64,000 bases of DNA from assembly GCA_038212275.1 (NCBI GenBank), contig JBBQUR010000007.1, positions 1 through 64,000 on the forward strand, given 5' to 3'. A program made the translations under genes and the position numbers. Source of the stretch: Planctomycetota bacterium (lineage in GTDB: Bacteria; Planctomycetota; B15-G4). The stretch's first letter is position 1, and every line of letters begins with the position of its first letter. This document shows, piece after piece, positions 23,077-49,718 of this stretch. The notes below the pieces were generated by a model. It was given only the letters and a program-made list of their open reading frames with translations. It was not told the DNA's origin and ran no database searches.

Positions 23077-24066
23077 ATGCCTCTCTCGCCCCCCCTGTTC
23101 CTCCTCCTGGCGACCTGCTGCCTGGCCGGCGCGGCGCCGGCCCAGCAGATCTACACCGACGAGACGTCCTTCCTCGTGGCCAGCGGCTCGCTGGGCGTGG
23201 AGAGCTTCGAATGCTTCCCGGCCGGGGATGTGGCGAGTTCCGCCCCCATCGAGACACCGGCCTTCCTGATGACGATCCAGCCCGCGCTCGGCAGCACGCT
23301 CGCGCCGATGAATGTGCAGGCGGCGCCCAATCCCAGCGGCCCGCACGCGACGGACGGCACGCGCTTCGTGCAGCTCGGCGCGACAGCATTCACCAACGGG
23401 CAGTTCGATCTGACCATCACGCTGGCCGGGCCCGTGGAGGAGTTCGGGTTCACGTACACGGACTTCGGCGAGTACGCCAACCTGCCCGGGTCGCTCACGG
23501 CGACGGTGCTCGGCGTCACCCACACTCTCGCATCCAACCCTCCGGTGCAGCCCAACGCGGTCGAGCGCTTCTGGGGCATCCGCACGCCGGGCACGCCGTT
23601 CACCAGCCTCGTGCTGCGCAAGTCCACGCAGGGTGACGGCATGGGCATCGACGAGGTCTATCACTCCGACCTCGGCGTGCCGAACCACTGCGCGGCGACG
23701 TGGACGGACCTTGGCTTCGCGAAGGCGGGCGTCAACGGCCCGCCGCTGCTCACGGGCCTCGGCCGCTTGAACGCGGGTTCGAACAATCAGCTCGACCTCA
23801 CGTCCGCGAAACCCTCCTCCACCGCCACGCTGATCTTCGGCATCACGCAGCTCAACGCGCCGTTCAAGGGTGGCACGCTCGTCCCGCAACCGCTGCTCTA
23901 CCTCACGCTGCCGACGAACGCCCTCGGCGCCACGAGCCTGCCCTTCGTCTTCCCCGCCGGAGTTCCTGCGGGACTCACGCTCTACTTCCAATTCTGGATG
24001 GCTGACCCTGCAGCATCCGGTCCCGGATTCGCGGCGAGCAACGGACTGCGCGGACTGACCTCCTGA
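23077..24066 (+). CDS. Secreted protein with C-terminal 'WTDLG-FKGG' module
   Basis: GGAG RBS, signal peptide (APA|Q); 3' part of ORF 21511-24066; module at 23701-24066. Confidence 0.8.
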   Translation: MPLSPPLFLLLATCCLAGAAPAQQIYTDETSFLVASGSLGVESFECFPAGDVASSAPIETPAFLMTIQPALGSTLAPMNVQAAPNPSGPHATDGTRFVQLGATAFTNGQFDLTITLAGPVEEFGFTYTDFGEYANLPGSLTATVLGVTHTLASNPPVQPNAVERFWGIRTPGTPFTSLVLRKSTQGDGMGIDEVYHSDLGVPNHCAATWTDLGFAKAGVNGPPLLTGLGRLNAGSNNQLDLTSAKPSSTATLIFGITQLNAPFKGGTLVPQPLLYLTLPTNALGATSLPFVFPAGVPAGLTLYFQFWMADPAASGPGFAASNGLRGLTS

Positions 24067-24241
24067 CAGGCGCTCACGCTGTCGGTCCGGGGCCGCAGCC
24101 CGTTCGGCCCGGGCGGCGCGTTGGGCACGGACGTGTACGCGATCGACTCCGTCGCCGGGACGGTTGCAGTGGGCGATCCAGGATCCGGCGGCGGTGCACG
24201 GCGTCGCGCTGTCCAACGCCGTGCGGGGCATCACGCCGTAG
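24067..24241 (+). pseudogene. Remnant of another 'WTDLG-FKGG' module gene
   Basis: 24164-24241 reads LQWAIQDPAAVHGVALSNAVRGITP*, matching the module C-terminus; no in-frame upstream gene body. Confidence 0.7.
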
Positions 24242-24316
24242 CGCGCGGGGGCGGCAGAAACGCCGCTGGCGGTATCCGGCTTCGGTGGGTGGCAGGTCAC
24301 TTCGCGGCCTGCTCCC

Positions 24317-24358
24317 GCCATGTCCCCCGCCCCATGTCCCCTGCCCCATGTCCCCCGC
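24317..24358 (+). repeat. 14-bp tandem repeat (C/G)CCATGTCCCC(C/T)GC x3
   Basis: Seen directly, just before the RBS of the next gene. Confidence 0.75.
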
Positions 24359-24370
24359 AGAGGTCCGATC

Positions 24371-26071
24371 GTGAACCACCACCGCCTGCAGCGCTGCGCC
24401 CTCCTCCTCGCCGTGCTCGTCACGGCTGCTTCCGCGACCCCGCCCACGGCCTGCGCGCAGGACCAGACCTGGTTCGACCTCGACGGCAGTTACGTGACCA
24501 CCGGCGATCACTGGGGCACCTCCGTGGCGCTGCTGCCCGATGTGAACTCCGACGGTTACGCGGACATGATCGTCGGCGCCCCGCAGGACGCGGCCGCCGG
24601 CTCCGCGTACCTCATCAGCGGCAAGGCGCCGCACCTGCCGCTGAAACAATTCCACGGCGACAGCAGCGGCAGCACCTTCGGGCAGGTCGTCGCGCTGGCC
24701 GGACTCGTGAATGGCGACAGCGTGCCCGACGTGCTGGTGAGCGCACCGCGCGAAGACGTCTTCACCGGATTCTTCGTCCTGGCTGACGCGGGCCGCGTCA
24801 CGCTCTACAACGGCAGCACCGGCGCGGTGCTGCGCACCTTCTTGGGCACCGGAGCCGGCGCGCGCTTCGGCGACTCCATCGCCAGCAACGCCGACGTCAC
24901 CAACGATGGCATCCCGGATGTCCTCATCGGCGCGCCGCACTGGGACAAGACCGGGACGACCGACAACGAGGGCTACGCCTCGCTCTACAACGGCGCCACC
25001 GGCGCGCTCATCGTGCGCCACGAGGGCGTCCAGGACGGCGCCCTCTTCGGCTGGTCGGTCGCCTTCGTCGGCGATCTCACCGGAGACGGGCGCAGCGAGT
25101 ACGCGATCGGTGCGCCCAGCACCGACGTGCTCGACTTCATTCCTCCCGACAACCTTGCCCCCGATGCCGGCACCGTCACCGTGTACAACGGCCTGACGCA
25201 CGCGCCGCTCTTCACGAAGCATGGTGTGGAAGGCGCCGAACTCGGCACGGCCGTCTGCGGCGTCGGCGACACCGACGGGGACGGCGTGCGCGAGCTCCTG
25301 GTCGGCGCGCCCGGCGCGCTCGGCGACAAGGGAGTCGCCTACCTCTACGAAGGCAGCAGCGGCGTTCTCGTGCGCGTGTTTTCCGGCAGCAACGCCGGCG
25401 AGCGCATGGGCACCTGGCTCTGCAAGGCCGGCGACGTGGACAAGGACGGACACGGCGATCTGGCCATCGGCGGGACGGAGGCAAGCGTGCCCTCGGGCGG
25501 CGGCCTCATCCGCGTGTTCGACGGACAGGACGGCAGCCTCGTCAAGCAGCACGACTTCCTCACCGGCTCCGGCGTGTCCAAGCACGCGAGCTTCGACGGC
25601 GGCCTCGACGTGAACGCCGACGGCTGGCCCGACCTGCTCGTCGGCCTGCCGGACAGCGACGTTGCCGCGAGCAACGCCGGCGGTGCGGTGTGCAAGGGCC
25701 AGCTCCACATCCAGCCCGATCTCGGCTTCCAGGGCCCGCACCTCGCGACCTTCTCCATCAAGGGCGGCAAGCTCGCAAGCGGCAGCAAGGCGGACTTTCT
25801 GCTCACCGGCGCGCCCTTCGGCGGCACGCCCTTCCTGATGCTGTCGGCGGGCCTCGGCCTCACGTCGTTCAAGGGCGGCACGCTCGTGCCCAAGTTCGCG
25901 GGCTCGGTGCTCCTGAGCTTCCCGCCCCTCCCGACCGGCAACCTCTCGATCCCGAGCATCCCGGGCGGCGGCGGCCCGCTGAACCTCTACGCGCAGTTCA
26001 TCATCGCCGGTTACGCCGGCAGCGAGCCCATCGGCCTGAGCAACGCGCTGATCATCCAGCTCGAGCCGTGA
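24371..26071 (+). CDS. Secreted FG-GAP/integrin-alpha-like beta-propeller protein with a variant C-terminal FKGG module
   Basis: Repeated D-x-[NDT]-x-D-G...VGAP blades; signal peptide; C-terminus DLG...SFKGGTLVP...YAQ...LSNAL. Confidence 0.85.
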   Translation: MNHHRLQRCALLLAVLVTAASATPPTACAQDQTWFDLDGSYVTTGDHWGTSVALLPDVNSDGYADMIVGAPQDAAAGSAYLISGKAPHLPLKQFHGDSSGSTFGQVVALAGLVNGDSVPDVLVSAPREDVFTGFFVLADAGRVTLYNGSTGAVLRTFLGTGAGARFGDSIASNADVTNDGIPDVLIGAPHWDKTGTTDNEGYASLYNGATGALIVRHEGVQDGALFGWSVAFVGDLTGDGRSEYAIGAPSTDVLDFIPPDNLAPDAGTVTVYNGLTHAPLFTKHGVEGAELGTAVCGVGDTDGDGVRELLVGAPGALGDKGVAYLYEGSSGVLVRVFSGSNAGERMGTWLCKAGDVDKDGHGDLAIGGTEASVPSGGGLIRVFDGQDGSLVKQHDFLTGSGVSKHASFDGGLDVNADGWPDLLVGLPDSDVAASNAGGAVCKGQLHIQPDLGFQGPHLATFSIKGGKLASGSKADFLLTGAPFGGTPFLMLSAGLGLTSFKGGTLVPKFAGSVLLSFPPLPTGNLSIPSIPGGGGPLNLYAQFIIAGYAGSEPIGLSNALIIQLEP

Positions 26072-26205
26072 CGGCACCGCGGGGATCACTCGGGAGCTGC
26101 CCCGCGAGACACCCGGCCAGCGCTCCGGATTCAGGAAGGGAGAGGCACCTGCCGCGAACTGCGCGGGGCCCGTCGCATCACCTTCCTGCCGGTGAAAGGA
26201 TCCCC

Positions 26206-27633
26206 ATGAAGACTTGCCTGGCCTCCGCTCTCGCGACCCTCGTGCTTGCGACCGCCGCCTCCGCGCAGGCCGGCGGCTTCCACACCGGCGACGTCTGGGA
26301 ATCCAATGACGCGCTGGCCGGCCAGGGATCCGCGCTGACGCGCATCGATCCGCTCACCGGCGTCACCACGGCCATGCACGCCTCCCCCTCCCAGAACGGC
26401 GGCGGCGGGCTGGCCTGGGACGGCTACCGCCACCGCCTCCTCTGGCGCGCCTCCGTCGCGGAGAAGCCGGGCCAGCACACCTGGCTGGTGGACGGCGCGG
26501 GCCAGGTGTCCGACACCGGCATCCCCGTCCAGCTCGGCTGGTTCGCGCCGACGGGCGACGGCCGCATCTACTGCATCGAGAACACCGGCGGTCCGCAGTA
26601 TCCGGTGTGGATCGACGCCGCGAACCGCCACCACCGCGTGCTGGATGCCGCCGGCCTGCTCCCCTACCAGCTGCCCGCAGGCACCTTCACCAGCCTCCGC
26701 GGCCTGGCCTATGACGCCGGCACGAACGCCTTGTACGCCTGCTCGCACCTCGACTGCGACGGGATGAGCCACCAGCAGATCGTGATGGGCAAGCTGGCGC
26801 TCTCGGCGGACGGCACGCGCGTGCTCGGCCCGCCGACCTGCACGTCGATGGACATCGGCACCGGCTTCGACACGCCGCAGGCTCTCGCACACCTGCCGAA
26901 CGGCAGCCTGCTGGTGACCTGCGTCGCGTCTCAACAGGTCCCGGCAGTTCCGCTGCCCAACCTGCTCTCCTACGATCCGGCCACGAGCAGCTTCTCGACC
27001 TATGCGCTCACCGGCGTCCAGGACCAGAACGACCCCTACATCCTGAACGACGGCGTGTATTCGAGCGCGCTCGGCGCCGCCCTCATCCTGGACACGTTCA
27101 AGGACCATCTGCGCGTCTTCACGCAGGGCAGCAGCGGCAACGGCACGGTGATCACGCCCACGGGCGTCGGCGTCTCCACCGTCGGCGGCTCCTCCGAGGC
27201 CGAGCAGCTGGCCGAGATCTCACCTACGGCCTGCAGCGGCGCCTGGGTGCCGTACTCGCTCGGCCTCGCCGGCAAGGGCGCCTTCGTGCCGACGCTCATC
27301 GGCCAGGGCTGCCCGGTGCCCGGCGGCGCACTCACGCTCAAGATCGCCGACGTCGTCGGCGGCGCGAGCGGCTCGCTGCTCGTCGGTCTCGCTCCCGCAG
27401 CCATTCCCTTCAAGGGCGGCATCTTCGCAGTCGGAGCCCTCACGCTGAACCTGACGATCGGCGTCGGCGGCACGAGCGGCGTCGCCGGCGCGGGCACGCT
27501 CAGCCTGCCGGCCGCGCTGCCCGCGCTCCCCATGCTCAGCGGCGTGAGCGTCTTCCTGCAGTGCGGCTTCGCGGACGCCGCCGCGGTGAAGGGCGTCTCG
27601 CTGACGCAGGGATTGCAGCTCGAGATCGGGTGA
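26206..27633 (+). CDS. Secreted probable beta-propeller protein with C-terminal FKGG module
   Basis: AAGGA RBS, signal peptide ASA|Q; GLAWD/GLAYD blades; C-terminus PFKGG...FLQ..FADAAAVKGVSLTQGL. Confidence 0.8.
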   Translation: MKTCLASALATLVLATAASAQAGGFHTGDVWESNDALAGQGSALTRIDPLTGVTTAMHASPSQNGGGGLAWDGYRHRLLWRASVAEKPGQHTWLVDGAGQVSDTGIPVQLGWFAPTGDGRIYCIENTGGPQYPVWIDAANRHHRVLDAAGLLPYQLPAGTFTSLRGLAYDAGTNALYACSHLDCDGMSHQQIVMGKLALSADGTRVLGPPTCTSMDIGTGFDTPQALAHLPNGSLLVTCVASQQVPAVPLPNLLSYDPATSSFSTYALTGVQDQNDPYILNDGVYSSALGAALILDTFKDHLRVFTQGSSGNGTVITPTGVGVSTVGGSSEAEQLAEISPTACSGAWVPYSLGLAGKGAFVPTLIGQGCPVPGGALTLKIADVVGGASGSLLVGLAPAAIPFKGGIFAVGALTLNLTIGVGGTSGVAGAGTLSLPAALPALPMLSGVSVFLQCGFADAAAVKGVSLTQGLQLEIG

Positions 27634-27761
27634 ACGGAAGGACGGGGCGGGCGAGAAGCGGCGGATGAGCGCGCCGCTCGCGCCGGAGATCAGGCTGAAC
27701 GCGCAGTCGCTCTCGTGCTGGCCTGCAGCTCCGGCAACACTCGGACCGGTCGCATGTCGTC

Positions 27762-28250
27762 TCAGTCGAGCCGCGCGAAGATGGCTTCGTTGATGCGCAG
27801 GGTGTCGCCGGAGTAGGTGGGCACGTGAAAGAACTGCTCCCCGATGCTCACGTCGTCGTCCGGACGGTCCGGCACGAGGCCGCGGCTCTCCAGTTGCCAC
27901 ACGACGGCGTGCTTGAAGCTGTAGGTCCGCCCGACGTGTGACACGGTCAGCACCGTGCCGGCCGGCAGCAGCGCGACCACGTCCGACTGCTCACGCAGCA
28001 GCGCGCGGTATTTCTCGACGCTGATGGGGCCATGCTCGGACTGCCAGCGGGCCCGCTCCAGCGCCACCAGCTCCAGGTGGGAGCCTCCGAACAGTCCACC
28101 GTCCTCATAAACGACGCCTTCCTGGAGCAGTTGGAGTCGGTGCCCCACGAGGTCGGCGGCCACGCGCTCGTGCGTCACGTCGGAGACGCAGCCGGTGGCG
28201 AACAGCAGGGACATCGCGACGATCCAGCCGCCTGGACGATGTGGCCGCAT
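27762..28250 (-). CDS. Hypothetical lipoprotein
   Basis: TAGCCT -10, GGAGG RBS, lipobox-like ATGC after a hydrophobic stretch. Confidence 0.6.
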   Translation of the reverse strand: MRPHRPGGWIVAMSLLFATGCVSDVTHERVAADLVGHRLQLLQEGVVYEDGGLFGGSHLELVALERARWQSEHGPISVEKYRALLREQSDVVALLPAGTVLTVSHVGRTYSFKHAVVWQLESRGLVPDRPDDDVSIGEQFFHVPTYSGDTLRINEAIFARLD

Positions 28251-28340
28251 GCTGCGCCTCCGGGGAAGGGCGCAGGCTAACCCGCCGCCGGAGCGCATGC
28301 CACGGGATCGCGCGCGGCGTGCTGCCAGACCACTCGCTCG

Positions 28341-29924
28341 CTACAGCGGAATGTTCCCGTGCTTGCGCGGCGGGTTGCGATCGCGCTTCGTCGCCAGCAG
28401 GCGCAATGCGGCGATGAGCCTCGCGCGCGTCTGCCGCGGCTCGATGACCGCATCCACGTAGCCACGCGCGGCGGCTTCGTAGGGGCTGCAGAAGCGGGTC
28501 TCGTATTCCTTGATCAGGCGCGCGGCCTCCGCGTCCTTGTCCTTTGCGGCGGCGATCTCCTTCTTGAAGATGATCTCGACGGCGCCTTTCGCGCCCATGA
28601 CCGCGATTTCGGCCGTCGGCCAGGCGAGGTTCAGGTCGCCGCGGATGTGCTTGCTGGACATCACGTCGTAGGCGCCGCCGTAGGCCTTGCGGCAGATGAC
28701 GGTGAGCTTGGGCACCGTCGCCTCGCAGTAGGCGTAGAGCAGCTTGGCGCCGTGGCGGATGATGCCGCCGTGCTCCTGTGCGGTGCCGGGCAGGAAGCCG
28801 GGCACGTCCTCGAAGGTGATGATCGGCAGGTTGAAGGCGTCGCAGAAGCGCACGAAGCGCCCGGCCTTGTCGGATGAGTCGATGTCGAGCACGCCCGCGA
28901 GCACGGCCGGCTGGTTGCCGACGATGCCCACCGGCCGCCCGTCGAGGCGCGCGAAGCCGACGACGATGTTCGCCGCGAAGTCCGCGTGCACCTCGAGGAA
29001 GTCGCCCGAGCCGCGGCCTTCGCCGCCCTTCGCGCCGCGCGAGCCGGCCGGCACGTCGACGACGCGCGTGATGACGTCGCGGATGTCGTAGGGCTTGGTG
29101 GCGCTCTCGGGGACCAGCGTGTCCAGCGCGACGTCGGCGCGCGCCGGGTCGTCGTCGCAGGCGAGGCGCGGCGGGTCCTCGCGGTTGTTGAGCGGCAGGA
29201 AGCCGAAGAGCCGGCGCAGCAGCGAAAGCGCCTCGGCATCGTTGCCCGCGCGGAAGTGCGAGACGCCGCTGCGCGAGCCGTGCACGCGCGCGCCGCCGAG
29301 GTCCTCGCTGGAGACCTCCTCGTGCGTGACCGTCTTCACCACGTTCGGGCCGGTCACGAACATGTAGCTGGTGTTCTCGACCATCACGATGAGGTCCGTG
29401 ATCGCCGGGCTGTAGACGGCACCGCCCGCGCACGGACCCATGATGGCCGAGAGCTGCGGCACGACGCCGCTCGCCAGCGTGTTGCGCAGGAAGATGTCCG
29501 CGTAGCCGCCCAGCGACACGACGCCTTCCTGGATGCGCGCGCCGCCGCTGTCGTTGAGCCCGATGACCGGCACGCCCACCTTCAGCGCCTTGTCCATGAG
29601 CGTGCAGATCTTGGCGGCGAAAGCCTCGCCGAGGCTGCCGCCGTACACGGTGAAGTCCTGGCTGAACACCGCGACGGGCCGGCCGTCGATCGCGCCGAAG
29701 CCCGTGACCACGCCGTCGCCCGGCACGCTCTTCACGCCGAAGTCGGTGTTGCGCGTCTCGATGAAGCGCCCTTCTTCCTGGAAGCTGCCCTCGTCGAGCA
29801 GCAGGTCCAGCCGCTCGCGCGCCGAGAGCTTGCCCTTCCCGTGCTGGGCGTCGATGCGCGCCTTGCCGCCGCCGAGCAGGGCGGCCTCGTTGCGCAGGCG
29901 CAGGTCGTCAACACGCTGGGACAT
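28341..29924 (-). CDS. pccB: Acyl-CoA carboxylase carboxyltransferase subunit (propionyl-CoA carboxylase beta / MmdA-like)
   Basis: [51 protein letters not shown] -10 at 29963-29968. Confidence 0.9.
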
Positions 29925-30227
29925 CGGGCGCTCCGGAAAGGCGTCGATTGGCAGAGCGCGGGATTGTAGGCCAGCGATGGACGCCGCCGCGAGCCTGCGC
30001 GACCTGCCGACGCGGGGGACCACGTCGGGAGTTCTCGCATGTCTTCAGGCGCCGACCACTCGCACCCGCTGTCACACCCGGCCGCACAGGCCGCCCGGTC
30101 CTGAGCAAGGGCCGGCGCCTGGCTCGCGCACGCTCAGGCAAGCAGTCGCCTCACGCCGGTGATCGGCATGGTGGATGGCGCGGATGCGGTGGTCTGCCTG
30201 AAGGGCAATCGCGATATCGTGGAAGGC

Positions 30228-31367: not shown

Positions 31368-31517
31368 ACGCGTGGTGCTCATCGTGATCGCCTGCCCGCA
31401 GCACGACAGGCGCCTCGACCCGCGGGCTCTGCGCGCACCCGAACACGAGGAGCGCCTGCGGTGCGGGGAGACGCGAGTGACTCGATCGACGCGCATCGCG
31501 CACGACTTGCGCATCGC

Positions 31518-31558
31518 GCGCGATGCGCGCCTCATGCGCGATGCGCGCCTCATGCGCC
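31518..31558 (+). repeat. 18-bp tandem repeat GCGCGATGCGCGCCTCAT x2 plus a partial copy
   Basis: Seen directly, adjoining the MFS gene stop. Confidence 0.7.
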
Positions 31559-32779: not shown

Positions 32780-32890
32780 GCGCTCTCCGGCACCCGGCCT
32801 GCAACCCGGACTCGCCGCCTGTCGTTCGTGCGCACAGGTCGCTAGGGTGGCCAGCCGCATCGTCCCCCATCCTGCAGCCGGAGACCACCC

Positions 32891-33778: not shown

Positions 33779-33780
33779 CC

Positions 33781-34473: not shown

Positions 34474-34475
34474 GC

Positions 34476-39665: not shown

Positions 39666-41243
39666 TCAGGGCGTCAGCGCCGACAGTCCGTTGGAGCTGA
39701 TGAAGCCCGTGGGCGACGCGGGCACCATGAACCACATCTGGTGAAAGATGTTGAGGCCCGACGGCACGCCGCTGGGGAAGTTGAGCGAGAACTCCAGCGT
39801 GCCCGTGCCGGAGGTCTGGTAGCCCGTGACCACGATGTCGGGCGACGGCACCATCGTGCCGCCCTTGAACGGCGCGAAGATCGTGTTGAGTCCCGCGACG
39901 AGGAAGCCCGACGTGGTGGCCGGCCCCGTCAGCACGTCGTACGTGGTCAGGGTCGCGGGCGCCAGCGTGCCGCTGCCCTTGAGGCGCGGCGTCGCGCTGG
40001 TCGGGTAGTAGGCGAGGCCCATGTCCTTCCAGGTGCGGCCGCGATTGCGGTAGATGAAGTCGTCGCCGCCGAGCGTGTTGGCGAAGAGGACCTCGGGAAA
40101 GGAGTCCTTGTCGAGATCGGCCACCGCCACGTCGCGCGAGTTGCCGCCCGCATTGGGGATGTCGCCGTAGTCGATGTTGGTGAAGGTGCCGTCGCCGTTG
40201 TTGATGTAGAAGAAGTTGTTGGCGACGCGATTGGCCACGAGCAGGTCGAGGTCCCCGTCGCGATCGAGATCGCCCCACGCCGAGCGATAGCAGTCGCTGG
40301 CTCCCTGCGACGGCGCAAGCGCGAGCATAGGCTGGAAGTGGGCCGTGCCGTCGTTGCGGTACAGGATGTTTCCCTGGAAGAAGCGGCGCGAAACGAAGAG
40401 GTCGAGGTCGCCGTCCTTGTCGTAGTCGGCCAGCGACACGCCGTAGGTCTCGCCCACGGCATCCGCCGCAGGGTCGTTGGTGAGCCGCAGGAAGGTGCCT
40501 TCCGTGCCGCCCTGCGTTCCGCCCTGATTGATGTAGATGAAGTTCTGCTCGTTCTCGCTGTTCGCGACGACGATGTCGGTGTCGCCGTCGTTGTCGAGGT
40601 CGCCGACCGCGACGTCGCGCGACGTGCCCGGGTCCGTCACGAAGGGCCCCGTGGTCACCTCCGTGAAGTTGCCGGTGCCATCGTTGAGATACATCGTGTT
40701 GGTCTGCAGCCGGTTCACGAAGATCAGGTCGAGGTCGCCGTCGCCCTCGGTGTCGATCCACGCGACGGCGTAGGTCTCGCCCATCGCGCTTGGGATCGGC
40801 CCGGTGGTGATCTTCTGGAAGCGCCCGGGGCTGCCGCCCGACGTCGAGCCGGCATTCCTGAAGACCTCGTTCGGCGTGCCGGGCCCGTTCGGCGGCGGCA
40901 TGAGGCTGCCGTTGGCGACGGCGAGGTCCAGATCACCGTCGCCGTCCATGTCGCCCCACGCGGCGTCGTAGGAATACTGCGGCGTCGAGGTCAGGTTGGA
41001 GGGCGGAATGATCGTGAAGTTGCCGAAGCCGTCGTTGCGATACGCCACGCTGATCTGCCCGAAGTTCGCGGCGAACAGATCCATGTCGCCGTCGTTGTCG
41101 AAGTCGCCCGGGACCAGGCTGCGCGTCTCCATGCCGTCCATGGAAATCGGCGATGCCGGTTCACTGAACAGGACCGGGTAGTTCTGCGCGGAAGCCGCGC
41201 CGAAAACCCCAAACCAGACAACCCAAAAGTGTGGAGTGCGCAT
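39666..41243 (-). CDS. Secreted FG-GAP/VCBS-repeat protein with C-terminal FKGG module
   Basis: Seven D-x-D-x-D-G/S-D-x-D-type blades; GAGGTG RBS; signal peptide ASA|Q; module at 39666-40031. Confidence 0.88.
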   Translation of the reverse strand: MRTPHFWVVWFGVFGAASAQNYPVLFSEPASPISMDGMETRSLVPGDFDNDGDMDLFAANFGQISVAYRNDGFGNFTIIPPSNLTSTPQYSYDAAWGDMDGDGDLDLAVANGSLMPPPNGPGTPNEVFRNAGSTSGGSPGRFQKITTGPIPSAMGETYAVAWIDTEGDGDLDLIFVNRLQTNTMYLNDGTGNFTEVTTGPFVTDPGTSRDVAVGDLDNDGDTDIVVANSENEQNFIYINQGGTQGGTEGTFLRLTNDPAADAVGETYGVSLADYDKDGDLDLFVSRRFFQGNILYRNDGTAHFQPMLALAPSQGASDCYRSAWGDLDRDGDLDLLVANRVANNFFYINNGDGTFTNIDYGDIPNAGGNSRDVAVADLDKDSFPEVLFANTLGGDDFIYRNRGRTWKDMGLAYYPTSATPRLKGSGTLAPATLTTYDVLTGPATTSGFLVAGLNTIFAPFKGGTMVPSPDIVVTGYQTSGTGTLEFSLNFPSGVPSGLNIFHQMWFMVPASPTGFISSNGLSALTP

Positions 41244-41502
41244 GTTCAATCACCTCACGACGGGCCGGAATCAAACCACTGGCCGCTCAGGGCGCACCGC
41301 GATCCCGCGCCATGCAGAGTAGCCGCCTCGAAGGCATCAGGCGCCAGAAAGCCTCTGAATTCAAGGTGGGCGACTCAACCGGTCAGCGCGGGACATGTTG
41401 CTGCCCGTCCATGTGAAGCGGCAACGGATTCAGGCGCCGGAAGCCCCGAGCCTGTCGCGCGGCGCCGTCGGAACAGCCGGGTGCGACCGACGGACGGGCC
41501 GC

Positions 41503-44500
41503 CTACTCGATGATCTCGCGCAGCTCCACCCGCCGGAACTCGATGGGCGCGCCCTCGCTCTGCAGGGCAATGCCGCCAGGCAGCTCGGCGCACCAGTGCG
41601 CACGGTTCTGCACCTGCCCGTTGACCTCCAGGGCGAGGTCGCCGTCGCGCAGCGTGATGCGGTAGGTGTTCCACTCGCCGAGCGGGCGCTCGCTGGACGG
41701 CAGCAGTTTCACGGTGCGCCGGCCGCTCGTGCGCGCCGCGTCGGCAACCATCGGGAAGTCGCCGATGTTCCAGATGTCGCCCGCGTCGCCGCTGTTGAGC
41801 TGGCACTCGATGCTGCGCGGCCAGACCTCGTCGGGCGACTGCACGCGCAGCAGGGCGCCGCTGTTGCCGGGCCTCGCAGGATCGGGGAAGCGCCACTCGA
41901 CGGTCAGTTCGAAACTGGTGAACGCACGCTGCGTGCGGATGTAGCCGACGGGTTGGCCTTCGTCGTGGAGCACCGCGGCGCCATCCACGGTGCGCACGGA
42001 CCACGCGGAGGTGTTCGGCACCGCGTCCCAGCCGGCGAGATTCGCGCCGTTCCACAGCGTGACGGGCGGGCCGAAGCGCGGCGGCGCATCGGGATCGTGC
42101 GCGAGGAAGGCGCACAGGTCGGCGAGCTGCTGCGGCGAGAGCCCGCGCGCGATGTCCTGTGGCATGAGCGACAGCTTGCTCGCGCGGCGCTCGACGATGT
42201 CCGCGGCGTCGAACGCGTGGCGCGCGCCGGTGCCGTCCTTCAACAGCACGGTCGCGCCGTCGGCCTGGAGCAGGCCGGCGAGCATGCGGCCGTCGCGCAG
42301 GGTGAGCGTCACGCTCTCGAAGCCGGCGCCGATCGCCGCGCTCGGATTGAGGATCGCGTCAAGCAGCTCGGCGCGGCCGAGCTTGGTGCGGATCGCGGTG
42401 AGCTCAGGGCCCACGTCACCGCCGCGGCCGGACATCGCGTGGCAACTGCTGCAGCGTGCCTCGCCGAAGAACAGCGCCGCGCCGGCGCGGCGGTCGCCCG
42501 GCAGCGCCACCAGCTCCGACATCGGCGGCAGAGCCGGCAGGTCGGGCCGCGTGAAGTGCTCGCTGGCCAGCGCACGCACGCCGAGATCCGGGTTGGTGAA
42601 GATCGCGGCCGCAATCGCGTCGAGCAGCTCGGCGCGCGCCTCGTCGGGCGCGAGCGCGTCGAGCCGCCCCGCCGCCGCCTCCGCGAGCAGCTGCGCGCCG
42701 CCCTGCGGATCGGCGGCGAGCTTCTCGGCGGCCGTGATGCGCGCCCCGAGATCCGCGCCCGGCGTGCGCAGCGTCTCGAGCAGCGCGGCTCGTTGCGCGA
42801 CCTCCGCGGCCGCCGCCGCTTCCGCCACCGCGGCGCGATCCGCGTAGACGATGAACTCCACCTTGGTCGGTGCGCCCGGCTGCTGCGTGCCGCCGTCGTC
42901 GAGCGCCGCCGTCACGGACAGTCGCGCCGCGCCTTCCGGCACCGCGAAGCTGATCTCGCTGGGCGCGTGCGTGCCGAAGCCCTCGCTGTACGCGACGCCG
43001 TCCACCGCGAGCGGCCCGCCGTCGCAGTTCGCGCCGACATGCACGCTGCCCCACCCCGCGCTCGCCGACAGCGGCGCCGGCGCGCCGGCCACCGCGAGGC
43101 GGATGTCGTGTGGTGAGGCGGGCGCGCTCGTCACGCCGGTGAAGCGCGGTGCGAGCCAATCGGCCCAGTCGGCGCCATTGCCGTTGTCGGCGGGCGTGGC
43201 GACGAGGGCGACGCGGCGCGAGCCGGAGATGTCCACGTCCACCGGCAGGCTGCCGCCCGTGACGGGGCCGCTGCGCCAGACGATCTGCGCGTCGGTCCAC
43301 GCCTCCGCAGTCTGCAGGTGCCGCGCGAGATCGTAGGCGCGCCAGTCGGCGGCGTCGTTGTGCCGCACCCAGAACGCCGCAACTTCGCGCGTGTCCGCCG
43401 GCCCGGCGAGCGCCAGCGTGAGCATGCCCTCCGCGGCTTCGCGCGAGCGGCAGAAGGCCAGCGCAGTCAGCGACTCCTCGCGTGCCGCGCGATCGAGTCG
43501 CTCCGAGCCAGCGCGCGTGGCGAAGGCCGGCACGAGAGACTCCGTGTGGAGTTGGCAGGCCAGCCGGGCGCGCATGCCCGACCACTGCAGCGGTTCGTCG
43601 AGTTCCTCCCCGGCCTGGCTGCGCCAGTCCGCCACGAACTCATCCCCCTTGCCTTCCCATGCGAGCCAGCCGAAGTGGCCCAACTGGAACGCCCGGAAGA
43701 GCCCGGCGTGCGCGGCGAACGGCGCGCCCCGCAGCGCACTCGCCAGCACCGGATCCAACTCCGGGAAACCCGCGAAGAGGTCTTCGGGCACCAGGTCTTC
43801 GATGTCCGCGCCCCTGGTGAGCGCCGCCCGCGCCCACGCACTGGCCGCGTGCCAATCCCGGTCCGCGCCGGCCGGACGCGGCGGCACGCGCGGCGAGTGG
43901 TCGGCGGCCGCACGCGCCCAGATGAGCCGCGCACCGAGGGCGGAGTCGGGCGCTTCCGCAGCGCACCGCGCATCGATGGCGTCCAGCCCGTCCGCGTCCA
44001 CGTCGGCGAGAGCGGCCCAGCCCTGCGCACGGACGGACATCGAGGGACTGCCCAGCGCGTCGAGTGCCTGCGCGAGATCTGCCGGTGGCGAGGCCTGCGC
44101 GCCGAGCGTCTTTCCGCTGCCCGTGGCCGAGACGCGCAGCAGCCGGCCGTAGGCCTCGCGATCTCCCGCCATGTGGCCGCCCACGCCCGGATCGAACCAG
44201 TCCGCGACGAGCACCGAGCCATCCGGCGCCACGCACACATCGCTCGGGCGGAAGAGCCGCCAAGTCTCGTCGCCTTCGTGCGACGGTCTGCTGACCAGCA
44301 ATCCCGTCAACTGCCTGCCGTAGGGTGTCAGGCCGTTGACGGGCGGTGCGGCGTCGACGGGCCAGAGGAACACGCCTTGGCTGCGATCCGGCGCCTGCTT
44401 GAGCGCGAACACGCAGTTGCGTCCCGCGTCCGCGCAGAACAGCGCGCCGCGCAGCGGCTCCGGCAGCGCGTCACCTTCGTACACGCACACGCCCGTCGGG

Positions 44501-45549
44501 CCGCCGCTGCCGGTGATGAGCGTGGTGGGCGCGACGCCGGGGTCGTCCTGATGCCAGTGCGCGCGTTGCGTGTTCTGGCCGGGGCGCCGGTCGGCTTGCC
44601 AGAAGCGGCTGCCGTCGGCGGACATGTAGCCGTAGTTGCCACCTTCGATCACGTTCGTGACGCGGCAGCCCTGGTTGCCGTCGTCGTCGTTGTCGAAGGT
44701 CCACAGGTCACCAAAGGAATCGACCGCGACCTCGTACGGATTGCGGAAGTTGTGCGCGAGCACGGTGAGTCCTGTGCCGTCCGTGTTGCAGCGCAGGATG
44801 AGGCCGCCGACGTAGGCGCGGCCGTCATCGCTCACGAGGCCGGGGCGATTGCCCGCGAGACGCTCGCCGCCGCCGTCGTACGCGCTGCCGCTGCGCAGCG
44901 TCCAGCCGGAGCGGTCCGTGACGATGTGCGGGCCTGCGTTGCCCAGCGCCATGTAGAGGCGACCGTCCGGCCCCTGCGTGAAACTGTGCGCGCCATGATC
45001 GTGGTTCGGGCCGCCGAAACCGGTGAGGAACACCTCCTTGCGGTCCGCGTGCAGGTCGCCGTCGTCGTCGTAGTAGGCCCACACCGTCGGCGAGCACGAC
45101 ACGAGCACCTTGTCGGGCAGCCAGCAGATGCCGAGCGGCGAGACGAGGTCGGCGTCCTGGGCAAACACGGAACTGGACTCCGCGACGCCGTCGCCGTCCT
45201 TGTCCTCCAGCACCATGACGCGATCTCCCGCGTCGTGGTGCAGCCCCGGATTGCGCCCGTCCCACTGCCGATAGTTGACGGCTTCGGTCACCCACACGCG
45301 GCCCTGCGGATCGATGTCGATCGCCGTCGGGTTGTAGAAGAGCGGCGACTCGGCCCAGAGCGAGACCTCGCAGCCCGCCGGCACCGCGAAGCCGGCGGTG
45401 AGGTCACCCGATGCGGACGCCGGCGTGCCGCTGCCGGATGCCGCTGGATCGCGAGCGGCTGCGGCAGCCGTCGCGTCCGATTGGGCAGGCGCGCAGATTT
45501 CGAGGCATGCCAGCGCGAGCGCCGTGCGGCGGAAGGCGGATGCGGACAT
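41503..45549 (-). CDS. PVC-type membrane-bound dehydrogenase-like protein: beta-propeller, NPCBM, cytochrome c (CxxCH) and DUF1080
   Basis: NPTAIDID..GRVWV, FRNPYE, RPSDV..APDG; GTHAPSEI (NPCBM); CSSCH, GPELT, SLMP; GNSG, GEWNTY, IALQSEG. Confidence 0.82.
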   Translation of the reverse strand: MSASAFRRTALALACLEICAPAQSDATAAAAARDPAASGSGTPASASGDLTAGFAVPAGCEVSLWAESPLFYNPTAIDIDPQGRVWVTEAVNYRQWDGRNPGLHHDAGDRVMVLEDKDGDGVAESSSVFAQDADLVSPLGICWLPDKVLVSCSPTVWAYYDDDGDLHADRKEVFLTGFGGPNHDHGAHSFTQGPDGRLYMALGNAGPHIVTDRSGWTLRSGSAYDGGGERLAGNRPGLVSDDGRAYVGGLILRCNTDGTGLTVLAHNFRNPYEVAVDSFGDLWTFDNDDDGNQGCRVTNVIEGGNYGYMSADGSRFWQADRRPGQNTQRAHWHQDDPGVAPTTLITGSGGPTGVCVYEGDALPEPLRGALFCADAGRNCVFALKQAPDRSQGVFLWPVDAAPPVNGLTPYGRQLTGLLVSRPSHEGDETWRLFRPSDVCVAPDGSVLVADWFDPGVGGHMAGDREAYGRLLRVSATGSGKTLGAQASPPADLAQALDALGSPSMSVRAQGWAALADVDADGLDAIDARCAAEAPDSALGARLIWARAAADHSPRVPPRPAGADRDWHAASAWARAALTRGADIEDLVPEDLFAGFPELDPVLASALRGAPFAAHAGLFRAFQLGHFGWLAWEGKGDEFVADWRSQAGEELDEPLQWSGMRARLACQLHTESLVPAFATRAGSERLDRAAREESLTALAFCRSREAAEGMLTLALAGPADTREVAAFWVRHNDAADWRAYDLARHLQTAEAWTDAQIVWRSGPVTGGSLPVDVDISGSRRVALVATPADNGNGADWADWLAPRFTGVTSAPASPHDIRLAVAGAPAPLSASAGWGSVHVGANCDGGPLAVDGVAYSEGFGTHAPSEISFAVPEGAARLSVTAALDDGGTQQPGAPTKVEFIVYADRAAVAEAAAAAEVAQRAALLETLRTPGADLGARITAAEKLAADPQGGAQLLAEAAAGRLDALAPDEARAELLDAIAAAIFTNPDLGVRALASEHFTRPDLPALPPMSELVALPGDRRAGAALFFGEARCSSCHAMSGRGGDVGPELTAIRTKLGRAELLDAILNPSAAIGAGFESVTLTLRDGRMLAGLLQADGATVLLKDGTGARHAFDAADIVERRASKLSLMPQDIARGLSPQQLADLCAFLAHDPDAPPRFGPPVTLWNGANLAGWDAVPNTSAWSVRTVDGAAVLHDEGQPVGYIRTQRAFTSFELTVEWRFPDPARPGNSGALLRVQSPDEVWPRSIECQLNSGDAGDIWNIGDFPMVADAARTSGRRTVKLLPSSERPLGEWNTYRITLRDGDLALEVNGQVQNRAHWCAELPGGIALQSEGAPIEFRRVELREIIE

Positions 45550-45744
45550 GCCTGTGCTCCAGGGAGAATGCAGCCTGCAGCCACCGGACACGGCGCGCCC
45601 GAACCGCATCCTTGCATGCTCTCATGCGGAGCCTCGGCACGCACCTGCGCCCGCAGCACACACCTGCAGCCGCAGCGCGCGCCTGACCCTGCGCGCGAAG
45701 GAGTCCGCAAGCGACATCGTGCAGTCGGCATGCTGCGCGCAGCG

Positions 45745-46407
45745 CTAGCCGGAGCTGTCGTCGGCGAGCAGGCGCACGAGCAGCGCGACGCCGGAGGCGC
45801 GGCTCCCGCCGAGTTCGAGCTGCGGCACCGTCGGCTCGTCGTGCACCGGCGCCTCCCCGTCGCGAGCCGCCGGCGCGCCGCCGACCCAGAGGCTCTCGCC
45901 CGCGGCCAGGAGCAGGCTTCCGCCCGAGCCCGTCACGCGCGCGTCGATCGCACCGGAGATCACGTGCACGAAGGTGTGTCCGGGGCCGGGCAGCTCGAGC
46001 ACGTGCAGGCTGCGGGCTCCCGGCCGCAGCAGCGTCACCACGGCGTGCACGAGGCCGCGCCGCACCAGGATGTTGAGGTCCGTCACCGGTCCGTCGATGA
46101 GCGTCGCGCTCGTCGACCAGTCGCCGGAGAAACGCTGCGGCGACAGCGGCAGCACGCGCACGCGCGGCGCGCTGCGGCCGTGCTGCAGGCGCAGTCCCGC
46201 CCCGGAGGTCACGACGAGCACGCGATCGAAACCCGGAAACGCGGAGAAGGGCCCGGGCTCGTCCACCGCGGCGCGGGCGATGCGCCAGTCGTAGTCGCCG
46301 CGCTCGAAGGCTGCGCCCTCCGGCCACAGCGCCAGTTCGTCGGTGAAGCCACGGCCGTTCTTCCACGCGACGCGGCGCGCGTCGGCCGCCGTGAGGTGGC
46401 GGATCAT
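45745..46407 (-). CDS. HutD/Ves-family cupin
   Basis: WKNGRG.T.E, WRI..A, GPFSAFPGFDR, DLNI. Confidence 0.85.
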   Translation of the reverse strand: MIRHLTAADARRVAWKNGRGFTDELALWPEGAAFERGDYDWRIARAAVDEPGPFSAFPGFDRVLVVTSGAGLRLQHGRSAPRVRVLPLSPQRFSGDWSTSATLIDGPVTDLNILVRRGLVHAVVTLLRPGARSLHVLELPGPGHTFVHVISGAIDARVTGSGGSLLLAAGESLWVGGAPAARDGEAPVHDEPTVPQLELGGSRASGVALLVRLLADDSSG

Positions 46408-46518
46408 GCGCACGGGCGCACTCCCGGCAGAGACGGGCGCCACGCGACGCTCACGGCGCGGGCCCCAAGCTCTCCGCCTCGCCCTCCTCGATGCGCCCGG
46501 GCCGGAGCAGGCATGGCG

Positions 46519-46550
46519 CGAGCTGCGACCCGAGCTGCGACCCGAGCTGC
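46519..46550 (+). repeat. 12-bp tandem repeat CGAGCTGCGACC x2.7
   Basis: Seen directly, downstream of the sigma factor stop. Confidence 0.7.
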
Positions 46551-46576
46551 TGCGGAGAGGCGTGGCCGCCGCTCCG

Positions 46577-47209
46577 TCACCCGGGTGCCTGTCCGTCATC
46601 GAGGTGCGTGGCCAGCTCGGCCAGCGCGCGCGAGAGCAGATTGCGCACGGACGCTTCCGTACGGCCCATGCGCTCCGCGATCTCCGCCCGCGACAGGCCG
46701 ACGATGCGCGAGAGCACGATGACCTCGCGGTAGTCCTCGGGCAGTTTCTCGAAGGCGCTCTCGAGGCGGTCCATGAGCTCGCGTCCCATGGCGACGCGGC
46801 TGGGCGACGACAGGCTGCAGTACACGGCCGCGAGGCGCGCGTCCCGGTCGCCATCGCTGCCGCCGGGTGGCGCGTCCAGCGCCATCGCCTCGCGGCGGAC
46901 GTCGCGCTTTCCAGCCGTCCAGTGCTCGGCGCGGTCCGCGATCTTGCGCATGGCCGTCGCGTACAGCCAGGCCCGGAAGGCCGATTCGCCCGGGTAGCGG
47001 AAGCGGTCGATGTTCTCGAGCACGTCCCGGCAGACGGACTGGACGAGGTCGCTCGCCGACTCGCGCGCGCGCAGCATCGGCCCGGCGCGCAGGCGCACGT
47101 AGGCGCGCAGGCCGGGCAGATGCTGGTGCAGGAGGGCCTCCACGGCCGCCGCATCGCCCGCCGCGGCGGCCTCCACGAGCACTCGGCTCTTGTCGCAATC
47201 CTCCGGCAT
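46577..47209 (-). CDS. ECF RNA polymerase sigma factor (planctomycete type)
   Basis: SASDLVQ, FRAWL, SSPSR, LPEDYREVI.L, EIAERMGRTEASVRNLLSRAL. Confidence 0.88.
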   Translation of the reverse strand: MPEDCDKSRVLVEAAAAGDAAAVEALLHQHLPGLRAYVRLRAGPMLRARESASDLVQSVCRDVLENIDRFRYPGESAFRAWLYATAMRKIADRAEHWTAGKRDVRREAMALDAPPGGSDGDRDARLAAVYCSLSSPSRVAMGRELMDRLESAFEKLPEDYREVIVLSRIVGLSRAEIAERMGRTEASVRNLLSRALAELATHLDDGQAPG

Positions 47210-47291
47210 GTCGAGGATCCTACCTTGACCCCACGGCGCCGATCGGCGACGCGTAGTGGGCCGCCCGACCCCGGGCCCCGAGGAGCCAACC

Positions 47292-48389
47292 ATGTTTCAC
47301 GAGTTCCGGACCGCGCGAGGCCTTTGTCTCGTCCTGCTGTCGACGCTTTGCGCCGGCCCTGCCGCGAGTGCCTTGCAGACTGCGGAACAGCCCGGCGAGC
47401 AGCCGTCGGCGGCCTCCGGCACTCCGGGTGCCTGGGGCCGCACCGACACGGCGACCGCGGCGCCGCCGGCCATCGTGGCGAGCGCGCAGTACGTCGGCGC
47501 GACGGTGCACTCGAGCGACGGCAAGGTCCTCGGGCCCGTCGTGGACCTCGGCATCGACGGTCGCGACGGCGCCGTGCTCTTCGTGGCCATCGCGTCGGAC
47601 AAGGGCATCGGCACCAGGGATCGCCTCACCGCCGTGCCGATCAAGCTGCTCGCCTTCGGTCCCGACGGGCTGGGGCTCGTGGGCGTCAGCCGGGCGCGCT
47701 TCGCCGGCGCACCGAGGTTCATGCCCGAGACCTGGCCGGACGCCTCCGACGTCGTCGCGTACGCGGCGTGGACCGCCACCGTCTGGCACTACTTCGACGA
47801 GACGCCGACGTGGAATTTCGACGGGCCCTACGAGCCCTACACCTCGGGAGAGCAGGAGCCGCCTGCAGACGGATCGCCGATTCCACGCGGGCACGAGGCG
47901 CCGGAGACTCCCGAGGAAGCCCGGATCCAGGAAGCCGGACGGGCGGCCAACCTCTTGAATCGTCCCGATGGCGTGCGCGCTTCGGCGCTGGTCACCGCGG
48001 ACGTGTTCGACGGCCAGAAGCAGCGCTGCGGTCGCGTGCGCGCCGTCTGCATCGACCAGCGCACGGGCAGGATCGCGTGCCTGGCCGTCGCGCGGCGCGA
48101 GACGAGCGGCGTGACGGGCAGCAGCGTGGACGACAGCGTGCTGTTGCCGCTGCCGTGGCGCGCTCTCAACTGCCGCCTCGCCGGCGAGCGGGTCTTCACC
48201 AACTTGACGCCCGAGCAATTCGACCAGGCGCCCGACTTCCCTGCCAGCACGTGGCCGGACCTCGCCGCGCCCGAGTGGCAGCAGCGCCTCGACACCTTCT
48301 ATCCGCCGATTGCGGAGGCGCCGGCCGAGGCACCGCAGGCGCCTCAGGCACACGAAGCGCAGGGAGCGCCCCCCGCCGCGGGCGGTTAG
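47292..48389 (+). CDS. Exported protein with two PRC-barrel domains
   Basis: AGGAG RBS, signal peptide; two copies of AS.L/Y....V....G...G.V....ID...G.....+..P+..L...AP.F...TWPD. Confidence 0.75.
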   Translation: MFHEFRTARGLCLVLLSTLCAGPAASALQTAEQPGEQPSAASGTPGAWGRTDTATAAPPAIVASAQYVGATVHSSDGKVLGPVVDLGIDGRDGAVLFVAIASDKGIGTRDRLTAVPIKLLAFGPDGLGLVGVSRARFAGAPRFMPETWPDASDVVAYAAWTATVWHYFDETPTWNFDGPYEPYTSGEQEPPADGSPIPRGHEAPETPEEARIQEAGRAANLLNRPDGVRASALVTADVFDGQKQRCGRVRAVCIDQRTGRIACLAVARRETSGVTGSSVDDSVLLPLPWRALNCRLAGERVFTNLTPEQFDQAPDFPASTWPDLAAPEWQQRLDTFYPPIAEAPAEAPQAPQAHEAQGAPPAAGG

Positions 48390-48425
48390 CATGCCCCGGC
48401 CCATTCCCGCCGCGGAGCCCGCACT

Positions 48426-49718
48426 TTGAACGTCCCACCACGCTCCGCCGGCCTCGCGGCCGCTTTCACCCTGTTGCTCGCCGTCGTTCCCGGAGCACGC
48501 GCCCAGGTCTGCTGCGATCCGTGGACCGACCTCGGGCAGAGCCTGCCCGGCACGCACGGCGCGCCACTGCTGGAGGCCTCGGGTTCGCTGGCCGAGCTCA
48601 CGCAGGTCACGCTCGATCTCGACAACGCACTGGAGAACTCGCAGGCGTGGTTGATCATCGGCGTCGCGCAGCTGGGCGCGCCGTTCAAGGGCGGCGTGCT
48701 CGTGCCGACGCCGGACGTCGTGCTGCCGCTCGTCACGAACGCGGCAGGCATGCTCGGCTTCACCGCCACGTTTCCCGCGGGCTTGCCGGTCGGCACGCAG
48801 CTGCTGCTGCAGTGCTGGATCCAGGATCCGGCGGCGGTCGCCGGTTACGCGGCGAGCAACGCGCAGCGCGGACTCATGCCGATGCCCCCGCCTGTCGGCA
48901 ACTTCCCGGCGGACTGGATCTTCGGCACCTGCGCGACCGACCCGAACATGCAAGTGCAGCAGTACGGCGAGAACACCTACATCCTGCGCCAGAGCCAGTG
49001 CTCCAACTTCGAGGGGCCCTTCGTCTTCCTGCTCTTCGGGCAGGACAAGGTGCTGCTGCTCGACACCGGCGCGACCGGCGCGCAGACCTACAACTACGTG
49101 CAGCAGGTCATCACGACGTGGCTCGCAGCGCACGGCAAGGCGTCCATCCCGCTGGTCGTGGCGCACACGCACGGCCACGGCGACCACGTCGCCGGCGACA
49201 GCCAGTTCACCGGCAAGCCGAACACCACGCTCGTCGGCACCTCCGTCACGGCGGTGCAGGCCTTCTGGGGTTTCCAGGACTGGCCCAATGACATCCGCCA
49301 CTACGACCTCGGCGGGCGCATGCTCGACATCATCGCGATCCCGGGCCACCAGGCCGCGCACATCGCGATCTACGACCACGAGACCGCGCTGCTGCTCACC
49401 GGCGACACGCTCTATCCGGGCTTCCTTTTCATCAGCGGCGCAGTGAGCGGCGGCAACTTCACCAAGTACAAGGCCAGCACGCAGCGCCTCGTGGACTTCA
49501 TCGCGGACAAGCCCGTCGCGTGGATCTTCGGCTGCCACGTCGAGATGAAGAGCACGCCCTTCCAGGCCTACACTTACGGCACGAAGCTCCAGCCCCTCGA
49601 GCGCGACCCGCAACTCACGCGCGAACACCTGCTCGAGTTGAACGCCGCGGTGCAGGCGATGGGCAACTCGCCCCACCAGGAGTATCACGCGGACTTTGTC
49701 ATCGATCCGAGCGGCTGA
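48426..49718 (+). CDS. Secreted MBL-fold metallo-hydrolase with N-terminal 'WTDLG-FKGG' module
   Basis: Signal peptide ARA|Q; module at 48522-48881; LLLDTG, HGHGDH, IPGH, TGDTLY, GCH. Confidence 0.85.
   Translation: MNVPPRSAGLAAAFTLLLAVVPGARAQVCCDPWTDLGQSLPGTHGAPLLEASGSLAELTQVTLDLDNALENSQAWLIIGVAQLGAPFKGGVLVPTPDVVLPLVTNAAGMLGFTATFPAGLPVGTQLLLQCWIQDPAAVAGYAASNAQRGLMPMPPPVGNFPADWIFGTCATDPNMQVQQYGENTYILRQSQCSNFEGPFVFLLFGQDKVLLLDTGATGAQTYNYVQQVITTWLAAHGKASIPLVVAHTHGHGDHVAGDSQFTGKPNTTLVGTSVTAVQAFWGFQDWPNDIRHYDLGGRMLDIIAIPGHQAAHIAIYDHETALLLTGDTLYPGFLFISGAVSGGNFTKYKASTQRLVDFIADKPVAWIFGCHVEMKSTPFQAYTYGTKLQPLERDPQLTREHLLELNAAVQAMGNSPHQEYHADFVIDPSG

Follow-up and report, generated by a model that had tools for sequence, protein, structure and literature searches.

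What does a single protein module do on a series of exported proteins that otherwise differ? The question is posed by the first 64,000 nucleotides of contig JBBQUR010000007.1 (C7:1-64000; hereafter, the window), part of a Planctomycetota metagenome-assembled genome (MAG; GCA_038212275.1) with an assembly of 4.65 Mb in 40 contigs that is 91% complete and 1% contaminated. The GC content of the window is about 71%. Five proteins encoded here carry a common module of about 120 residues, which an initial annotation, made from the letters of the window alone, had read as a candidate surface-sorting or assembly tag. We find that the module represents a genuine and large domain family, as yet without a name and probably of the terminal sorting or anchoring kind, and we propose, with a probability of roughly 40%, that it serves as a common handle by which surface proteins dock to the cell envelope.

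Five exported proteins share one module

Translation and alignment place the five copies at 23701-24066, 25712-26071 and 27244-27633 on the plus strand, at 39666-40031 on the minus strand and at 48522-48881 on the plus strand. All five have F-K-G-G and a later Gln in common and contain, respectively, the strings APFKGGTLVP, TSFKGGTLVP, IPFKGGIFAV, APFKGGTMVP and APFKGGVLVP; the other copies are 28-50% identical to the first. A hidden Markov model (HMM) built from 108 copies outside the window still detects all five (E = 4e-46, 1.5e-43, 1.3e-32, 3.6e-28 and 9.8e-18), and their similarity is therefore not an artefact of the alignment. Four modules end their proteins, whose genes stop at plus-strand positions 24066, 26071 and 27633 and at minus-strand position 39666, and the fifth directly follows the signal peptide of a 430-residue protein with a metallo-beta-lactamase (MBL) fold.

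Signal-peptide-like N-termini can be read from the translations of all five carriers, and their passengers differ: the first belongs to no known family, the second and fourth are of the FG-GAP type, the third is a six-bladed propeller and the fifth is an MBL domain. In all these respects, that is, the positions, the motif strings, the signal peptides and the diversity of passengers, the initial annotation holds. The remnant of a further copy that it had mentioned also exists, at 24164-24238 on the plus strand between the first and second carrier genes, and consists of the last 25 codons of the module and a stop (E = 1e-6 with the HMM lacking window copies). At the DNA level it matches, with 87% identity, the 3' end of a module gene elsewhere in the genome (C23:7238-7316).

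A large family at the ends of surface-type proteins

The initial annotation had predicted a large genome-wide family, and this is what we find. A profile of the five copies recovered 129 module open reading frames (ORFs) from a six-frame translation of the genome, a genome profile search gave 132 matches, and five rounds of iteration raised the count to 140. Module genes make up about 4% of the called genes (131 of 3,389 crude calls). Some passenger paralogues missed by the profile, such as those at C15:98162-99919, C6:186037-187884 and C1:221390-223312, end in what look like diverged module tails, for example ...FSSNALPLTLQP; given these tails, the family in this genome may exceed 140.

In 116 of the 129 ORFs no more than one residue separates the module from the stop codon, and in 126 no more than 10; among 111 copies, 82 finish with Pro. 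C-terminal placement, noted early for four of the five window proteins, thus describes the great majority of copies. It does not describe a conserved minority of 4 among the 140: the module is N-terminal in the window MBL gene and in two giant Kelch/malectin paralogues on contig C4, and internal in a gene on contig C28, where a further domain of ~170 residues follows. Each protein has one module, two significant copies on a single carrier never being seen among the 129, and stand-alone genes of ~150-230 amino acids hold little else. Placement is much the same in relatives, being C-terminal in 267 of 272 database matches and in 106 of 109 closed ORFs at relatives' loci; the three exceptions among these ORFs have a tail of ~280 residues, which fits the architecture of module plus MBL.

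A crude heuristic assigns a signal-peptide-like start to 114 of the 129 carriers, and about eight more are apparent by eye; for some seven carriers the start is uncertain or the gene truncated, and the start of a 1,554-residue WD40 ORF is likewise uncertain. Gln occupies the first position after the signal peptide in 27% of carriers vs 11% of other proteins, a noisy figure from a crude predictor that flagged only 41 carriers. When all 129 carriers were run against Pfam, 33 proved to have FG-GAP-type propellers and 52 had no Pfam family. The remaining passengers include right-handed beta-helices, DUF642/CBM_4_9, peptidases of families M10, M12 and S8, sulfatases and LTD with endo/exonuclease-phosphatase domains, as well as phytase-like, phosphoesterase, CHRD, Laminin_B, DUF7948, GSDH, Kelch, PD40 and WD40 domains. 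Judged by sequence, this repertoire is of the surface or extracellular type. Frequent occurrence in cytoplasmic proteins had been named at the outset as an outcome that would speak against a sorting role, and the Pfam survey found no cytoplasmic-type family among the 129. A database relative that appeared to join a GT1 domain to the module (P0063) was discarded as a cytoplasmic carrier, since it looks frame-shifted, with a middle rich in Arg, Ser and Pro. Another relative (P0111) combines a C25 peptidase with the module; no C25 peptidase occurs among the 129 carriers of this genome.

Beyond this genome, the module was detected in 9,298 clusters at E <= 1e-3, and in 1,405 at E <= 1e-30, in a library of 1.84 billion representatives. 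Within an even sample of Planctomycetota it occurs in 56 of 301 genomes, all from uncultured lineages. All 15 sampled genomes of the order to which the window belongs (families f1, f2 and f3) have it, with 25-286 first-look candidates each, and it is also found throughout families such as f7 (7/7), f14 (5/5) and f21 (2/2); in the same sample it was not found in f6 (0/15), f15 (0/15), f24 (0/10) or f27 (0/10). The 356 confirmed module stretches in a species-level genome collection all lie in MAGs, mostly of Planctomycetota or Phycisphaerales, and we take the few short contigs (2-10 kb) in otherwise-labelled MAGs to be binning errors. The DNA was traced to runs of sediment metagenomes and, in small shares, of activated sludge; the runs listed included none of RNA.

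In a tree of 113 modules, the FG-GAP label changes 21 times, vs about 28 times in shuffles. None of the three tandem window genes has another of them as its nearest relative, and divergence within this one genome is deep, with a median end branch of 0.45 changes per column. Recent growth of the family is thus by whole-gene duplication, and at depth there is either older mixing or poor resolution.

An unnamed domain with a nearly uncharged surface

The initial annotation suspected that the module has no name, and database comparisons agree: no characterised domain in Pfam, NCBIfam or the sequences of the Protein Data Bank (PDB) matches it. In the five window proteins the module has no Pfam or NCBIfam match at E <= 0.1, no family of either database is matched by more than one of 31 singly scanned modules at E <= 1, and Pfam models never cover the module region of the 129 carriers. 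A profile search of PDB sequences returned one chance-level row (E = 0.26). Named matches in a collection of 5.8 billion proteins read 'hypothetical protein', with a few names based on the passenger, and their precomputed Pfam lists share no family. The nearest named clusters in the ESM Atlas, planctomycete CHRD proteins (0.79-0.82), turned out to be module carriers and not a separate family. Among the titles and abstract openings returned by a full-text literature search, nothing concerned the module domain.

An AlphaFold2 model based on a 31-row alignment is all-beta with nine strands (mean pLDDT 87.4, pTM 0.80). Foldseek found nothing in the PDB at E <= 1e-3, the best rows being Ig domains of ester-bonded adhesins (E = 1.7e-3, TM 0.39). 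The exhaustive structural aligner VIA gave Z scores of at most 8.3, for macroglobulin and Ig domains, which is the background level of the tool. The predicted fold is accordingly a generic Ig-like beta-sandwich, which by itself says nothing about function.

Conservation was counted over 113 copies from this genome and, for two positions, also over 382 copies overall. Gln97 is present in 100% of the 113 copies and in 381 of the 382, and Ser/Thr112 in 99% and in 379 of 382. Also strongly conserved in the 113 copies are Gly76 (99%), Gly58 (97%), Asp102 (94%), the FKGG lysine Lys56 (88%) and Asn113 (84%). Losses of Lys56 and Asn113 are independent across the 382 copies, and the alignment has no conserved His; for these reasons an isopeptide or ester cross-link within the module, which we considered, finds no support in these counts. 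The most conserved stretch, PFKGG-(T/V)LVP, is also where the model has its lowest confidence (pLDDT 59-75), and may be a candidate contact site, a loop whose shape would depend on a partner.

Charged residues (K, R, D and E) make up 6.8% of the module vs 15.4% of its own passengers and 21.3% of the rest of this GC-rich proteome; Arg accounts for 0.8%, Glu for 0.9% and Asp plus Glu together for 3.8%. Such depletion points to selection acting on the whole surface of the module.

A putative docking handle and its alternatives

In the mechanism we propose, cargo would leave the cytoplasm by the Sec pathway, directed by its signal peptide. The module would then fold on its own into a nearly uncharged Ig-like beta-sandwich of ~120 residues, and the folded module would bind one shared component of the envelope, which might be a protein of the outer membrane, a scaffold or a glycan at the surface. 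Docking of this kind would hold propeller adhesins, beta-helix enzymes, proteases, sulfatases, nucleases and a multihaem cytochrome at the cell surface. The domain itself and its fold class, size, spread, position, cargo and composition are what the analysis establishes, whereas any binding by the module, its partner and the destination of the cargo are inferred.

Several observations suggest docking: (i) The N-terminal and internal copies favour a position-tolerant docking or retention module over an export signal. Because the module also works at these positions, its logic is closer to that of an anchor of the dockerin or SLH type than to that of a cleavable export signal. A strictly C-terminal export signal would be unworkable in the module-MBL protein, an architecture conserved in eight genomes, as the module is N-terminal there, whereas a binding module could work. 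(ii) An MtrC/MtrF-like multihaem cytochrome (C25:40932-43262) carries a Big_9 domain and the module, behind a plain signal peptide that has no lipobox cysteine. Known MtrC/MtrF proteins are attached by a lipid to the outward side of the outer membrane. That this carrier has the module in place of its relatives' lipid anchor favours docking more weakly. No MtrA/B-like genes are obvious among its neighbours. (iii) The module is confined to its lineage and strongly expanded within it, a pattern that fits a shared address or handle. (iv) Also in keeping with docking are the presence of one module on so many exported proteins of surface type with unrelated passengers, its depletion in charge and the low model confidence of its most conserved loop.

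Other observations weigh against docking. Searches of this genome found no binding partner for the module, and the 369 genes within two positions of carrier genes include no conserved neighbour of a non-regulatory kind. The structural matches from Foldseek and VIA are with generic Ig-like folds only. Where passenger paralogues lack the module, no other anchor takes its place, and hence they give no support to a 'choice-of-anchor' arrangement. The flush C-terminal placement, with its frequent final Pro, is what one expects of a signal like those of the type IX secretion system (T9SS), and an anchor does not need it.

Nor do two carriers with enzymatic passengers, considered by analogy with PorU and PorZ, supply the machinery. 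The MBL enzyme was rejected in this role, as its fusion to the module occurs in only 8 of 16 genomes of the order (this one included) and homologues without the module exist, some of them in other module-rich genomes; across the sample of 301 the architecture is found in eight genomes from two families, with 51-66% identity. A polytopic PMT_2 (GT-C) glycosyltransferase (C20:72769-75138) is joined by a (Gly-Ala)n tether of ~50 residues to a module in which FRGG replaces FKGG. It was likewise rejected, the fusion being seen in this genome only (1/301, from a stricter first look whose counts are a floor), and the body of the enzyme recurs only in two other genomes (G191 and G271), both times without the module. 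Neither fusion follows the module across genomes, and we therefore take the MBL and GT-C carriers to be cargo or one-off fusions. Both results count against docking too, as each removes a candidate for the machinery.

Among the alternatives, the one that survives best is still unlikely: that the module is an export signal similar to those of the T9SS. A non-homologous translocon of the outer membrane, dedicated to this task, would recognise it in the periplasm and carry it across, after which it would be cleaved off or used for covalent attachment. Its position at or near the C-terminus and the prevalence of a final Pro speak for such a signal, as does a cargo of more than 100 proteins per genome of T9SS-like kinds (proteases, FG-GAP/VCBS adhesins, beta-helix enzymes and LTD-nucleases). 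T9SS C-terminal domains (CTDs) are also Ig-like sandwiches, although the CTD of PorU reaches a Z score of only 7.2 with VIA, within the background, and a surface of low charge could suit passage through a channel. Against this, the N-terminal and internal copies are conserved, and no conserved cleavage motif precedes the module, the first 12 columns of the alignment (A2) being unconserved. The initial annotation had seen no T9SS CTD motifs in the module, and indeed T9SS CTD models match none of 31 modules at E <= 1.

Components of the T9SS were not found in this genome either. SprA, PorP/SprF and Por_Secre_tail were not detected there, nor was Slam (PF04575), in searches whose positive controls were themselves silent; PorV was not found in the only T9SS-component search whose control genome matched. 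No FadL-type barrel was found, and the models TIGR04189, NF033710, PF11751 and PF18962 had no match in this 91% complete genome. It encodes two Omp85 proteins, which are uninformative. Requiring a signal peptide together with an aromatic residue at the C-terminus gave 23 outer-membrane-like candidates, and Pfam, run on 14 of them, identified one SusC-like TonB receptor and two proteins of no recognised kind. These two were dropped as candidates when they did not track the module in five genomes, in a single-sequence search with poor sensitivity at phylum distance. The SusC-like TonB-dependent receptor (CarboxypepD_reg, Plug and barrel; C20:44526-47531) has a TPR protein beside it and adjoins a cluster of three carriers.

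Distinctly less probable is a ligand-binding or spacer domain that serves its own passenger, like a carbohydrate-binding module (CBM), a lectin or an Ig stalk, with a target outside and not in the cell's own envelope. The module's weak fold neighbours include the beta-glucan-binding protein GNBP3, CBM56 and adhesin stalks (all at E > 1e-3); proteins can have it at either end, and many passengers are adhesin-like or enzymes. But CBMs and stalks are not normally flush with the C-terminus in more than 95% of carriers, and they rarely occur as just one copy in each protein that has them, as the module does here. A single ligand would also need to serve passengers as different as cytochromes, proteases, nucleases and propellers, and no CBM family matches the module.

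We hold it to be very unlikely that modules bind one another and thereby assemble the cargo into a coat or lattice on the cell, the lattice docking of the initial annotation: the low charge of their surface, the stand-alone module genes and the possible recruitment of the inner-membrane GT-C enzyme to other modules through its tethered copy would agree with such homotypic assembly, but no other sampled genome has the GT-C fusion and the deep divergence of modules within one genome is awkward for a single interface. All remaining explanations taken together seem just as improbable. Position tolerance and, to a lesser degree, the MtrC-like cytochrome are what lead us to retain a docking handle as the preferred reading.

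The carrier genes and their surroundings

The first carrier gene of the window (23077-24066, plus strand) encodes an exported protein of 329 residues, identical to a database protein (P0007), with a passenger that has no known family and the module at its end. It is followed on the same strand by the second (24371-26071), with a signal peptide and an FG-GAP propeller (E = 3e-35), and by the third (26206-27633), whose signal peptide and module enclose a beta-propeller recognised by its fold, there being no Pfam match. The model of this passenger is a six-bladed propeller (pLDDT ~80 over residues 1-310) that matches Kelch and TolB propellers (E ~1e-7, TM up to 0.66 on the target). The passenger (26206-27243) and six paralogues make up a seven-member propeller family without a Pfam match, and its members share a conserved AQ(A/G)GGF..G(D/E)L start after the signal peptide. 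The fourth gene (39666-41249, minus strand) has a signal peptide and an FG-GAP/VCBS passenger (FG-GAP_3, E = 4e-54), and its nearest paralogue lies at C4:45202-46881. The fifth (48426-49718, plus strand) encodes, in order, a signal peptide, the N-terminal module, a Pro-rich linker and an MBL-fold domain at ~49020-49538 (Lactamase_B, E = 3e-12).

Directly upstream of the three tandem carrier genes, a BlaI-type repressor (20233-20643, plus strand) is followed by a BlaR1/M56 membrane sensor-protease (20660-22903, plus strand), and the gene for an extracytoplasmic function (ECF) sigma factor (46577-47182, minus strand) adjoins the fifth carrier gene. We report these genes as context only. A protein of 1,293 residues encoded at 41503-45384 on the minus strand, which has no module, combines DUF7133, NPCBM, cytochrome c and a 3-keto-disaccharide hydrolase, and is a typical planctomycete 'PSCyt-like' giant.

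Across the genome, only two families are enriched among neighbours of carrier genes: one of ~200 residues that includes the window ECF sigma factor, and one of large proteins of 800-1,000 residues. Pfam was run on the window member of the former. Four of nine further paralogues of the ECF sigma factor lie within two genes of a carrier, against a background of 369 of 3,258 genes. This enrichment points to regulation and not to transport. In the 150 nt preceding the start, the heptamer GTCACAC is present for 10 of 110 carrier genes vs 16 of 3,258 others, mostly ~70-120 nt before the start in the longer upstream stretches; no clear -35 partner was seen for it upstream of carriers. It is a weak lead that may be part of a promoter, and it does not define a regulon.

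Implications

To our knowledge, little is established about how proteins move across or onto the outer membrane of Planctomycetota. A single tag, shared by over 100 proteins of surface type in each genome, marks the surface proteome of a widespread uncultured lineage, and could be used as bait or for phylogenetic profiling in the search for the machinery. It is conceivable, if rather doubtful, that the module is the cargo tag of a sorting pathway specific to a large uncultured branch of the Planctomycetota, a non-homologous analogue of the T9SS; were this true, the pathway would route some 4% of called genes to the cell surface. If the tag can be transferred between proteins, it might find a use in surface display. 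A database model for the module would give thousands of 'hypothetical proteins' an informative annotation.

Comparison with known systems

The T9SS is known for a cargo of proteases, FG-GAP/VCBS adhesins, beta-helix enzymes and LTD-nucleases. Its CTDs (PF18962/TIGR04183, type A; TIGR04131, type B), which are found in Bacteroidota, share with the module an Ig-like sandwich at the extreme C-terminus of varied signal-peptide proteins, and in both cases a genome has tens to hundreds of carriers with similar cargo and a lineage-restricted distribution. The module differs in its length of ~120 residues vs the 75 positions of the PF18962 model. Unlike the CTDs, it is almost uncharged, is sometimes N-terminal or internal and belongs to Planctomycetota, with no sequence match to the CTDs and no T9SS components found.

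The Ig domains of ester- or isopeptide-bonded adhesins from Gram-positive bacteria (for example PDB entries 8dj2, 8f90 and 4mkm) rank highest in the Foldseek search (E = 1.7e-3 to 5e-3), and the near-invariant Gln and the Ser/Thr at one position recall them. TM scores are only 0.36-0.42, however, and these adhesin domains are repeated units of a stalk whereas the module is a single terminal tag. The comparison with CBMs and lectins comes down to GNBP3 and CBM56 as fold neighbours (E ~7e-3 to 2e-2, TM 0.43-0.46). The module is also as unlike PEP-CTERM and LPXTG signals as first supposed, being a beta domain of 120 residues with neither a hydrophobic helix nor a basic tail; it ends in ...SNGLxxxTP, has no NCBIfam match and shows none of the features of PEP-CTERM, LPXTG or GlyGly-CTERM.

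Closer in use are the anchoring and docking domains. SLH, CWB2 and PPC domains are terminal additions that help in retention or secretion and tolerate either position, PPC being removed on maturation. The module resembles them as a position-tolerant terminal part of secreted proteins; they usually occur in tandem or on narrower sets of cargo, and it has no Pfam match to them. Dockerins are small modules found on many diverse secreted proteins, mostly at the C-terminus and sometimes N-terminal or internal, where they dock to a common partner. They differ from the module in structure: the dockerin Pfam model does not match it, and dockerins are helical, acidic, calcium-binding duplicated domains of ~70 residues, whereas the module is all-beta and nearly uncharged and has no known cohesin-like partner. 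In arrangement the two are alike, each being one small module on a very large and diverse set of secreted proteins, C-terminal in most and N-terminal or internal in some.

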